Source: Rhizaria sp. SCN 62-66 (lineage: Eukaryota). From it: a stretch of DNA of 48,255 bases. The position numbers and the translations under genes were made by a program. Location: NCBI GenBank assembly GCA_001724265.1, contig MEDY01000010.1:124001-172255 (forward strand). The letters run 5' to 3'. The notes below the pieces were generated by a model. That model was given only the letters and a program-made list of their open reading frames with translations, did no database searches and was not told the DNA's origin. This document shows positions 39,863 through 42,166 of this stretch, piece after piece; position 1 is the stretch's first letter, and each line of letters begins with the position of its first letter.

Positions 39863-42166
39863 TCACGCGATCGCAGCTGCCCCGGCCGCGGCGTGGCCTG
39901 CTGCGGCGCCCGCGTCGGCCGCCCTGGTCCTTGCGATGGCGACGGCGACGGCAGGCTCGTCGAGCGCGGCGCCCACGGCGGCCTCGGCCAGCACGCGCTG
40001 CCGCGCGACATACTGCCGCAGCAGGTGCGGCGGCGCAGCAATACTGCTTTGGGAGACAGCTGTTGCAAGCGCTGCTAACGCTGCAACTAGCGCCTTCCTG
40101 TTCCCAGCCGCATGACTGCTGCTGCTGCTGCTGCTGCTGCTGCTGCTGCTGCTGCTGCTGCTGCTGCTGCTGCTGCTGCTGCTGCTGTTGTTGCTGCTGC
40201 TGCTGCTGCTGCTGTTGTTGCTGCTGCCGCCGCCATCGCCACCAGCGGCGCCAGCGGCGCCAGCGGCGCCGGAGCTGACGGCGCTGACAGGGCTGCCGCC
40301 GTTGGCGGGGCTGACGTCGCCGAGCGCGGCCTCCGCGAGCGCAGTCTCCGCGACCGCGAAGGCCTTAAGCGCAGCCGGCGCCGCGGTGGCCAGCAGCAAC
40401 GCAGGATGCGCCAGCAGCAGCGCCGCCGAGACGGGCCGCCGCGACGGCGAGGGGGTTAGCAGGACCGAAAATAGGTTCGCCAGGAGCTCGAGCAAAAAGC
40501 ACTCGCAGCCGGGGACGGTGCACTGCGCAGAGGCGCCGGCGACGGGGGCATTCACATGCACGCCCGCACTCGTACTCGTACTCGTACTCGCACTCGTGGC
40601 ACTAAAGCCTGAGTTCGCAGGTTGGATGCAGCAAATGATGTTCGTGATGTTGACACTGCTAACTGCACCGGTCGCCGCAGCGGCTGCTGCAGCAGCACCG
40701 GCGGTATCGTCCTCGCCATCATCGTCACTGCCGTTGTTCGCAGTATTGGGGACGAGTCGGTCCGGGTTGGCGCGCTCCCAGGCACCCGCGGGTCCGAAAA
40801 ATCCCCTGCCGAGCAGCATCTCGAGACCGCAGAGCGCGAGCGACCAGTAGTCCTGTCCCCGCAGCCCCGCAGCGGTCTCGCGCGCGAGCGCCGCCGCCGC
40901 CACGGCCACGGGCGCGCGCGGCGGCGGCGGCGGCGGGCGCGCGGGAGACCGGTAGCAGTGGCGGCCCGTGGTTGCCGCCACCGCGGCCGCGGCAGCGCCG
41001 GCCCCCGTCGAAAGAGCAGTCGCAGTCGCCGTCGGGGAGCCGACGGAGGGGGAGGCCGGGGCGGTGCCTCTGGGGCTGCTGTGGACGCTGACGTTGAGGC
41101 CACCCGTGCGGCCGGTGTTGGGGAGGCGCAGCAGGAAACTAGCGCCGGAGGCAGAGACAATAGAGCTTGTCGACTGGCTCGCAGTTGGACTTGAGAGCGG
41201 GGCGGCAGGGGCGTTGCTGCGGCGGGCAGTGGGAGACTGTGGTTGTGATGAGGGCGGCGTCTGTGTTGGCAGGGACTGTGCGCATCCCCAGTCGATGAGA
41301 GCGACACTTACATTAGCGCTGTTGGCACTTACACCAGCCTCGAGCGCGGGGCTCTGGCAATCCAATGACGGGCTGGACACACGCTCTGCAGCTGCATCAG
41401 CCACCGCAGAGCCCGCGTTGAGCGCGATGTTGGGCAGCGCGATGTCCAAGTGCGCCGTTTGGGCCACCACGTGCGCCGCGACGACGCCCAGCGCCAGCCG
41501 TGTCAGCAGCCAGCGTACGGCCGAGGGCGGCAGACCGCAGCAGGGCAGCCGCCGGGTTTCAGTCTTGTCCTTGCCTCTGCTGGCACTGTGAGTGCTAGCG
41601 CTGGTGTTGTTTGATGTGACAGAGACGTCGAACGTTGCCCAGTAAGGGTTGCTTTGGTATGCGTGCGCAAAGCCACTACAGGCCTCACAAACTGCAAAAC
41701 CAACATCTGTGGCGCCGCCAGACTCGGTGGTAACGCTGCACTGGGACGGAGGTGCGGAGGTGACAGGAATAGGGCAGGAGTCTGGGGCAAAGAACTTGCT
41801 CACGGTCAGCTTGAGCATCGTCCTAGCGTCGCCGCCGGAGTAAAAAGGCACGAACAGCGGCGCAGGGCCGGAGACAGCAGAAGTCCCTTTTACTAAACAG
41901 GGCAGAAACTCGGTTAGTAATGGGTGACGCGCGGTGGCAGCATGTGACTCGACGGTCATGCGCGTCAGCATCGATTTCTAGTGCGCTAACAAAACAGGAG
42001 CGCGAGGATCCTGTTTCCCGTCCGAAGTCGTTTTACCGCAGTACACAGCCAACAAGTGCTCTCCAGTTAATGCTGACGTGTCAACCCATAGAGATGCATC
42101 GGCAAAGCCGCCTTGGCCGATGCAAAGATCGAGCGGGACAAGGCGGCCAGCAGGTTTAAACGACAT
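39863..42166 (-). CDS. Divergent protein kinase or pseudokinase, ~767 aa, with one in-frame TAG at 41980-41978
   Basis: Track ORFs 41978..42304 and 39863..41971 share one frame. Motifs in order: IGQGGFADASL (Gly loop), LLAVYCGK (beta3 Lys), LLAH*KSML (alphaC), LFVPFYSGGD (hinge), AHLDIALPNI (catalytic loop), LIDWG, HCYRSP, DYWSLALCGLEMLLGRGFF, PSPSRRPVSAALLLAHP. TGA stop. Confidence 0.8.
40116..40227 (-). repeat. (AGC)n/(AAC)n trinucleotide tract encoding poly-Ser with Asn interruptions
   Basis: About 37 CTG/TTG units on +; translates as SSNNSSSSSSSNNSSS...S in the kinase frame. Confidence 0.95.

Follow-up and report, generated by a model that had tools for sequence, protein, structure and literature searches.

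An in-frame UAG in a degenerate kinase-like gene and the probable, infrequent use of UAG as a sense codon by a GC-rich wastewater eukaryote

A single in-frame TAG in a kinase-like gene

Does an in-frame TAG near the start of a eukaryotic gene end translation, or is it read as an amino acid? The question is raised by a kinase-like gene on a 48,255-nucleotide (nt) stretch of DNA (assembly GCA_001724265.1, Rhizaria sp. SCN 62-66, contig MEDY01000010.1, positions 124,001 to 172,255). We refer to this whole stretch as the window and use its own coordinates throughout. Translation of the gene from ATG 42166 gives MSFKPAGRLVPLDLCIGQGGFADASLWVDTSALTGEHLLAVYCGKTTSDGKQDPRAPVLLAH, then a TAG, then KSMLTRMTVESH, after which the frame meets no further stop until TGA 39865-39863. 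The 767-codon frame contains exactly this one stop and has no TAA, no TGA and no frameshift. In this organism TAG most likely encodes an amino acid and is seldom used. We put at roughly 0.7 the probability that UAG is sense in the organism and that the TAG of this gene is read through as codon 63 of a pseudokinase-like protein.

In the proposed code, UAG would be a rare sense codon and only UAA and UGA would terminate, so that TAG 41980-41978 would become codon 63 of a 767-residue degenerate protein-kinase-like protein. As in published UAG-only codes, UAG would be decoded by a tRNA with anticodon CUA, and the release factor would no longer recognise UAG.

The TAG is real in the DNA and is not an assembly slip of one record. 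A second metagenome contig (L001) is 100% identical to the window over 38882-42759, and a contig from run X4, which belongs to another study and year, spans 41627-43214 with 0 differences and diverges from the window elsewhere. Run X1 is perhaps the window's own source and was not counted as independent.

The gene, too, is genuine and its sequence is constrained. HMMER, run exhaustively against 1.84 billion representatives, recovered a 342-residue relative, P0003, that matches residues 416-767 (E 1.9e-11) with 46% identity in the matched stretches and 43% across the whole alignment, including long identical blocks such as GQD.W.LALCGLE.LLGR.FFG.AGAW. The only other match in that search was the gene's own upstream fragment, P0002. 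A word-based homologue search with the read-through protein gave no match, a metagenome contig scan with the gene gave only the identical contig L001, and a scan of prokaryote genome contigs gave no match. Contigs from a poly(A) RNA run (X5) lie on the gene at 40296-40538 and 41391-41655. The gene carries long Ala/Ser/Pro-rich inserts, and about 40 Ser codons stand in a row at 40100-40245 (minus strand, AGC-rich). The contigs of several runs break at this repeat and at others like it (35854-35906, 40107-40244 and 40876-40948).

TAG appears to behave as a sense codon across the window

Several observations argue that TAG is translated in this organism. First, three open reading frames (ORFs) that 'end' in TAG stay open for 509, 316 and 101 more codons until a TAA or TGA appears, interrupted by TAGs alone, and six tested ORFs that end in TGA or TAA meet their next in-frame stop 2-19 codons later. 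Second, the segments that lie beyond or before TAGs (1,383 codons, including the 62 codons upstream of TAG in the kinase-like gene) hold in frame six TAG but 0 TAA and 0 TGA. Read in its two remaining phases (2,756 codons), this DNA has 39 TGA, 23 TAA and 36 TAG, and about 31 in-frame TAA or TGA would be expected in the segments were they non-coding. Ten in-frame TAGs fall in four genes (2,649 codons; GC content at third codon positions, GC3, 0.63), and these genes have 0 in-frame TAA and 0 TGA. Finally, when TAG is taken as sense, the 11 gene ends of the window, a small sample from one window, use TGA seven times, TAA four times and TAG never. Among them the ends anchored by homology, those of S16 (...KSYR), the dynein light chain, eIF4E and CD36, are all TAA or TGA. 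UAA and UGA thus serve as terminators here and UAG does not.

Coding signal also continues in frame past UAG, most strongly in a gene with an RsfS domain, which is the strongest case for a sense TAG. Its standard-code ORF runs from 8418 to 11168, and by way of four TAGs and a 156-nt intron the frame reaches a TGA at 14387 after about 1,940 codons. The product is mostly low-complexity sequence rich in Ala, Asp and His around a single RsfS domain (residues 434-523). The 160 codons with the TAG cluster have an in-frame codon score of 0.230, the best of the six frames, and the score rises to 0.337 over the 349 codons that follow. GC1/GC2/GC3 of the cluster are 0.68/0.43/0.78, with GC3 at 0.78-0.82 and periodic. 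The frame past the last TAG offers no ATG for about 270 codons and is therefore not a separate gene.

Since TAG appears to behave as a sense codon window-wide, we take the kinase TAG to be translated. The first-pass annotation had held that this TAG must be read through if the kinase fold is to be intact. Translation stands as the best reading, and it does so from the use of TAG across the window, with no support from a kinase hidden Markov model (HMM).

If the gene were instead a pseudogene or carried a recent nonsense allele, TAG would terminate and the gene would be decaying. A highly degenerate protein without an HMM match, huge low-complexity inserts and a weaker 5' codon bias would suit such decay. 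However, the C-terminal half is conserved with P0003, the 767 codons hold no frameshift, TAA or TGA, the identical TAG recurs in sequences from different studies and years, and RNA-run contigs lie on the gene. All 10 interruptions in the four genes are TAG, unlike the outcome of random decay, and we consider a decaying gene improbable.

A TAG that still stops translation could also be leaky or corrected in the RNA, through programmed read-through or through U-to-C editing of UAG to CAG. The rarity of the codon (10 in about 12,600 codons) and its absence from strongly biased genes would suit such inefficient decoding, but none of the 11 window genes needs TAG as a terminator and the ten TAG contexts share no common motif by eye. 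No letter at 41978-41980 is changed in the runs compared, none of which has an RNA contig there. Of the explanations considered here we find this one the hardest to credit.

Other results weigh against reading TAG as sense. The strongly biased genes (9,912 codons, GC3 0.85) hold zero TAG; other rare codons are also scarce in them (TTA 7, TAT 7). Four of the nine TAGs outside the kinase-like gene cluster in 160 codons. For the genes at 42637 and 45031 the codon scores of the extensions are ambiguous, since one antisense frame scores as well. No tRNA gene was found in the window, nor any Rfam match, and word-based, HMMER, metagenome and prokaryote contig searches returned no orthologue over any TAG site. 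A homologue search with residues 1-420 of the gene at 45031, which cover three TAG sites, returned its own fragment only.

Resemblance of the protein to protein kinases

ESM (Evolutionary Scale Modeling) features assign residues 66-600 to the neighbourhood of protein kinases, with all 30 of the nearest 30 clusters labelled Pkinase at scores of 0.95-0.97, which we treat as a lead only. The search found 181-207 of 256 features in common and a recognition of 2896, and the nearest clusters include those of Tribbles and IRE1.

The order of sequence motifs points the same way. Motif patterns were drawn from the Hanks-Hunter subdomains, were written after the sequence had been seen, and were counted in the 96,506 six-frame residues of the window. 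In a single frame the protein presents IGQGGFA, LLAVYCGK, E73 with HPLL, FVPFYSGGD (105), HLDIALPN, DWG, DYWSLA, RRP (576) and AHPAL (586), in that order (Table 1). The Gly-loop pattern followed by hydrophobic-A-hydrophobic..K occurs at this single place in the six frames. D[FWYL]G alone occurs 20 times, and the catalytic-loop pattern followed by D[FWYL]G within 15-70 residues occurs once.

The ESM features and the canonical motif order support a degenerate protein-kinase-like protein. The canonical form of beta3 is A-x-K, from which the Lys of LLAVYCGK is displaced. HLDIALPN keeps the H, D and N of HRDxKxxN and is without its Arg and Lys. Inserts of about 100-130 residues split the kinase-like domain. 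With a displaced beta3 Lys, no catalytic-loop Arg or Lys, DWG where DFG is usual and large inserts of low complexity, the protein is probably a pseudokinase.

Profile and structure methods speak against a kinase identity. Neither the read-through protein nor the ORF downstream of TAG matched a Pfam family at E<=0.1, and four pieces searched at E<=10 matched none either. The NCBIfam search gave no kinase family, and phmmer against all PDB chains gave no match at E<=10. Alignment of the read-through protein to the Pkinase HMM, the check that the first-pass annotation had itself proposed, placed nothing, upstream or downstream of TAG, at E<=10. AlphaFold2 run without an alignment returned unusable models, with a predicted local distance difference test (pLDDT) value of 36.4 over 600 residues and of 32.1 over the N-terminal 135. 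The first-pass annotation had described a kinase N-lobe interrupted by TAG. Its motifs do lie in one frame, Gly-loop- and beta3-like upstream of TAG and HLDIALPN, DWG and DYWSLA downstream, but they gain no support from profiles. Its view that the kinase is degenerate elsewhere agrees with the displaced Lys, HLDIALPN, DWG and the lack of an HMM match.

The start of the protein and the place of TAG in a putative kinase fold

It is the motif count by itself that suggests a beta1-beta3 assignment for the 62 residues upstream of TAG. Taken alone, these residues have an ESM recognition of 2116, under the 2300 mark. Their matches are short unnamed clusters, with an FTA2 cluster, which we take to belong to the kinase clan, first at rank 20 (score 0.89).

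This low recognition, which counts against a translated TAG, would be expected if the protein started past it, at ATG 41971 (MLTRM...) or 41959. The upstream 62 codons would then be a 5' leader or an upstream ORF, the domain would be without beta1-beta3, and the Gly-loop-like motif would be a chance match or a relic. ATG 41971 stands 6 bases past TAG and opens a 702-residue ORF in the standard code. Codon usage and RNA coverage lean towards the same start and away from read-through. The first ~90 codons (42166-41894) score an indecisive -0.07 to 0.00 in frame (coding mean 0.10, non-coding mean -0.11), the codon signal is clearly positive only from ~41908 onward, and contigs of run X5 cover neither TAG 41978-41980 nor 42014-42347. 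On the other hand, the pair of Gly-loop- and beta3-like motifs is unique among the six-frame residues, shares the frame of the downstream motifs and is plausibly spaced from them, and a kinase-like domain without beta1-beta3 would be structurally incomplete. If TAG is sense, moreover, a ribosome starting at 42166 would run into the same protein. A start downstream of TAG is unlikely on this evidence, though it deserves to be taken seriously.

If TAG is translated as codon 63, motif spacing suggests where the residue would fall. E73 (in TVESH) lies 9 residues ahead of P82 (in HPLL), and TAG lies 19 residues ahead of it. In typical kinases the alphaC Glu precedes the 'HP' of beta4 by about 9-10 residues. 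By this spacing E73 appears the better candidate for the alphaC Glu, and TAG more likely belongs to the linker that joins beta3 to alphaC or to the first turn or so of alphaC, about ten residues before E73. This is a poorly conserved place. The first-pass annotation had put TAG at the alphaC Glu itself and had favoured Glu as the inserted residue. E73 matches the expected Glu-to-HP spacing and TAG does not, and because TAG is probably not the alphaC Glu, the argument for Glu falls with that placement.

The conserved genes for eIF4E, CD36, S16 and the dynein light chain carry no TAG in any exon. With no tRNA gene, no TAG in a conserved-gene exon and no orthologue over a TAG, the inserted residue is not readable from the window. 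The kinase-like gene is one instance of the phenomenon and is uninformative on the identity of the amino acid.

Introns and splicing around TAG

We inferred six introns from sequence and mapped the extent of five (120-206 nt, GC 0.36-0.55). All six donors read GTACG, and the mapped ends consist of a pyrimidine-rich stretch followed by YAG. None of them is confirmed by a spliced read, a further point against a translated TAG. The 5' splice site is unusually strict, and among the five mapped introns three (171, 156 and 120 nt) have a length divisible by three. In the CD36-family gene the Pfam CD36 profile aligns at 3-232 ahead of the intron and at 239-461 after it.

The S16/uS9 gene (33559-34420, minus strand) has at least two introns, with a further GTACGT donor at 33972. 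From 34108 to ~34080 translation seems to pass from one frame into another that overlaps it, and about 15 of the residues expected from S16 proteins seem to be missing. The cause could be one more very small intron, an indel introduced in assembly or a genuine deletion.

Could splicing remove the kinase TAG? A 144-nt candidate intron at 42036-41893 would do so in frame. A yeast-like TACTAAC branch motif stands 21 nt ahead of its pyrimidine-rich TTTAG end, its length is divisible by three, the codon score climbs just past 41893, and the nearby CD36-family gene does have an in-frame TAG within an in-frame intron. Its donor, GTAAA, nevertheless matches only three of the five letters of the GTACG found in 6/6 inferred introns, and GTACG is absent from all 11 GT sites that separate ATG 42166 from TAG. 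TACTAAC is not above chance in the window, CTAAC is seen by eye in none of the five fully read introns, and the GC of the candidate, ~0.55, is not below that of its flanks. Splicing would also delete the segment from E73 to HPLL, the pattern of which occurs only twice in the six frames. The first-pass annotation had named an intron over the TAG as one of two results that would overturn its reading; with no GTACG donor upstream of TAG, we judge such an intron quite unlikely, and read-through of codon 63 is not displaced by it.

Two further checks concern these signals. TACTAAC was rejected as an intron signal, as its two copies in the window compare with 0.71 expected, 15 of 100 shuffles reach two, and a coding ORF contains the other copy. 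Among the donor and acceptor pairs around TAG, checked by hand, the only frame-keeping ones are 42036-41893 (or 41887) and 42044-41823, and the latter would remove the stretch of the N-lobe with the strongest coding signal. Run X5 of poly(A) RNA shows no junction in 41893-42036 nor in the CD36 intron, and its reads speak neither for nor against splicing.

Table 1. Coordinates of the kinase-like gene, its motifs, the in-frame TAGs and the introns of the window. A slash marks an exon-intron boundary.
Feature	Coordinates	Strand	Basis or remark
Kinase-like gene	39863..42166	-	ATG 42166 to TGA 39865-39863; 767 codons if TAG is read through
In-frame TAG, codon 63, context PVLLAH(TAG)KSMLTR	41978..41980	-	Same letters in L001 and the X4 contig
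Gly-rich-loop-like IGQGGFA, residues 16-22	42101..42121	-	[LIVMC]G.G.[FYW][GAS] 3 times in 96,506 residues
beta3-like LLAVYCGK, residues 38-45	42032..42055	-	Lys two residues past canonical A-x-K
alphaC/beta4-like TVESHAATARHPLL	41915..41956	-	E73 (41950-41948); HPLL residues 81-84; E.{7,10}HP[LIVMF][LIVMF] 2 times in six frames
Catalytic-loop-like HLDIALPN, residues 239-246	41429..41452	-	H.D.{4}N once in six frames
DWG in DFG position, residues 292-294	41285..41293	-	Motif order
Subdomain-IX-like DYWSLA, residues 439-444	40835..40852	-	Block best conserved with P0003; D.WS.[GA] once in six frames
Candidate in-frame intron GTAAAA...TACTAAC...TTTAG, 144 nt	41893..42036	-	Would remove TAG; judged unlikely
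Four in-frame TAGs (11166, 11196, 11385, 11646) in RsfS-domain gene 8418-14387	11166..11648	+	Codon score, GC3
In-frame TAG, codon 441 of gene 42637-44910	43957..43959	+	Frame stays open past TAG
Four in-frame TAGs (45109, 45781, 46171, 47617) in gene 45031-47925	45109..47619	+	Frame stays open past TAGs
CD36-family gene intron CAG/GTACGA...CACAG/G, 171 nt	37626..37796	+	Holds in-frame intronic TAG
RsfS-domain gene intron CAG/GTACGC...CCCCCCCAG/G, 156 nt	12657..12812	+	Sequence
Giant gene intron near 3' end CAG/GTACGC...CACAG/G, 176 nt	32821..32996	+	Sequence
Axonemal dynein light chain gene intron AAG/GTACGT...GTGTAG/G, 120 nt	7766..7885	-	Sequence
Ribosomal protein S16/uS9 gene first intron AAG/GTACGT...GAGTAG/A, 206 nt	34180..34385	-	Sequence

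Source organism and neighbouring genes

The source of the window is a eukaryote. GC content is 54-77% per 2-kb window, roughly 13 genes lie on the 48 kb, and the DNA is present in bioreactor and wastewater metagenome runs. The organism would be a GC-rich, intron-poor, flagellum-bearing eukaryote from such metagenomes. The closest relatives of the eIF4E gene product are metagenome proteins (58% and 52% identity), and its best named matches are fungal, one at 37% identity and one at 50% over 36% of the query. The eIF4E protein itself is encoded on 7 contigs, the longest of 205,739 bases. A literature search on the GTACGT donor consensus pointed to no particular lineage.

The gene at 7100-7999 (minus strand) encodes an axonemal inner-arm dynein light chain (Pfam Ax_dynein_light, E 9e-83), and the organism therefore builds a flagellum or cilium. 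Together with a gene at 5948-6478 (plus strand) for a histone-fold CBF/NF-Y-like protein, it occupies a region first taken for spacer. The window also encodes a homologue of the RsfS-family ribosome silencing factor. If this protein serves an organellar ribosome, presumably a mitochondrial one, it would imply an organelle with its own ribosomes.

Two further long frames have no Pfam family. One is an open frame of about 1,800 codons at 3-5375 (minus strand, GC3 0.80) that is cut by the window edge. The other is a giant gene at 18073-33152 (plus strand), which has a single unbroken exon of 4,937 codons (GC3 0.87), the 176-nt intron at 32821-32996, and a 51-codon last exon with TAA at 33152.

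Where run X4 departs from the window, it does so mostly in spacers, in the CD36 intron and past the CD36 stop, and not in exons (stretches 36119-36556, 37690-37734 and 39063-39139). This pattern would fit another strain of this organism, sampled in a different study.

Comparison with known systems

In its domain architecture, the kinase-like protein resembles the kinase superfamily (PF00069, with pseudokinases such as Tribbles) in the order GxGxFA, A-V-x-x-x-K, E..HP, HxDxxxxN, DWG, DxWSxA and RRP..HP. It is unlike that superfamily in lacking an HMM match at E<=10, in its displaced beta3 Lys, in having no catalytic-loop Arg or Lys, in DWG, and in its inserts of 100-130 residues.

Codes in which UAG and UAA differ in meaning are rare, and two papers (PMC5304391, PMC11687900) describe them from one rhizarian, one fornicate and a small number of ciliates. 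Literature searches for such a code in a GC-rich metagenome eukaryote found only the systems of PMC5304391, PMC11687900 and PMC10553269; publication elsewhere is possible.

Panek et al. (2017; PMC5304391) describe the rhizarian exLh, in which nuclear UAG encodes Leu, and Iotanema spirale, in which it encodes Gln. UAG is abundant in exLh (384 UAGs in 71 genes) and scarce in I. spirale, and both use it less in genes with high expression or strong codon bias (PMC5304391). Like exLh and Iotanema as described there, the window has in-frame UAG in coding sequence, terminates with UAA and UGA, and avoids UAG in strongly biased genes. Unlike exLh, it has about 10 UAGs in some 12,600 codons. The window also differs from the fornicate Iotanema in its RsfS homologue; if this protein is mitochondrial, a fornicate is unlikely.

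In phyllopharyngean ciliates, as McGowan et al. (2024; PMC11687900) report, UAG encodes Leu in three TARA lineages and Gln in Hartmannula and Trochilia. These ciliates share three points with the reading proposed for the window, namely UAG as sense, UAA kept as a stop and a proposed decoding by tRNA(CUA) (PMC11687900). One ciliate that reads UAA and UAG as different amino acids is listed in PMC10553269. Set against the ciliates, the window has a GC content of 54-77%, GTACG introns of 120-206 nt, about 13 genes per 48 kb, and UGA as its commonest terminator (7/11). High GC, such introns and such a gene density do not look ciliate-like.

These features suggest, as a tentative proposal to which we give slightly less than even odds, a GC-rich, intron-poor lineage of activated-sludge flagellates, so far not known to depart from the standard code, at an early or low-usage stage of UAG-only reassignment. 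UAG would be tolerated there in weakly biased, fast-evolving genes, this probable pseudokinase among them, and avoided in the ~10,000 strongly biased codons. Standard-code gene callers cut the genes of this organism at TAG, and public protein sets hold a 108-residue fragment (P0002) and a 97-residue fragment (P0012) in place of the full proteins. If UAG is indeed sense, a further lineage that is GC-rich and uses UAG this rarely would be instructive about stop-codon capture and would reveal which genes accept a new codon first. The behaviour of the window matches the known class of codes in which UAG is sense and UAA and UGA are stops, at very low usage.

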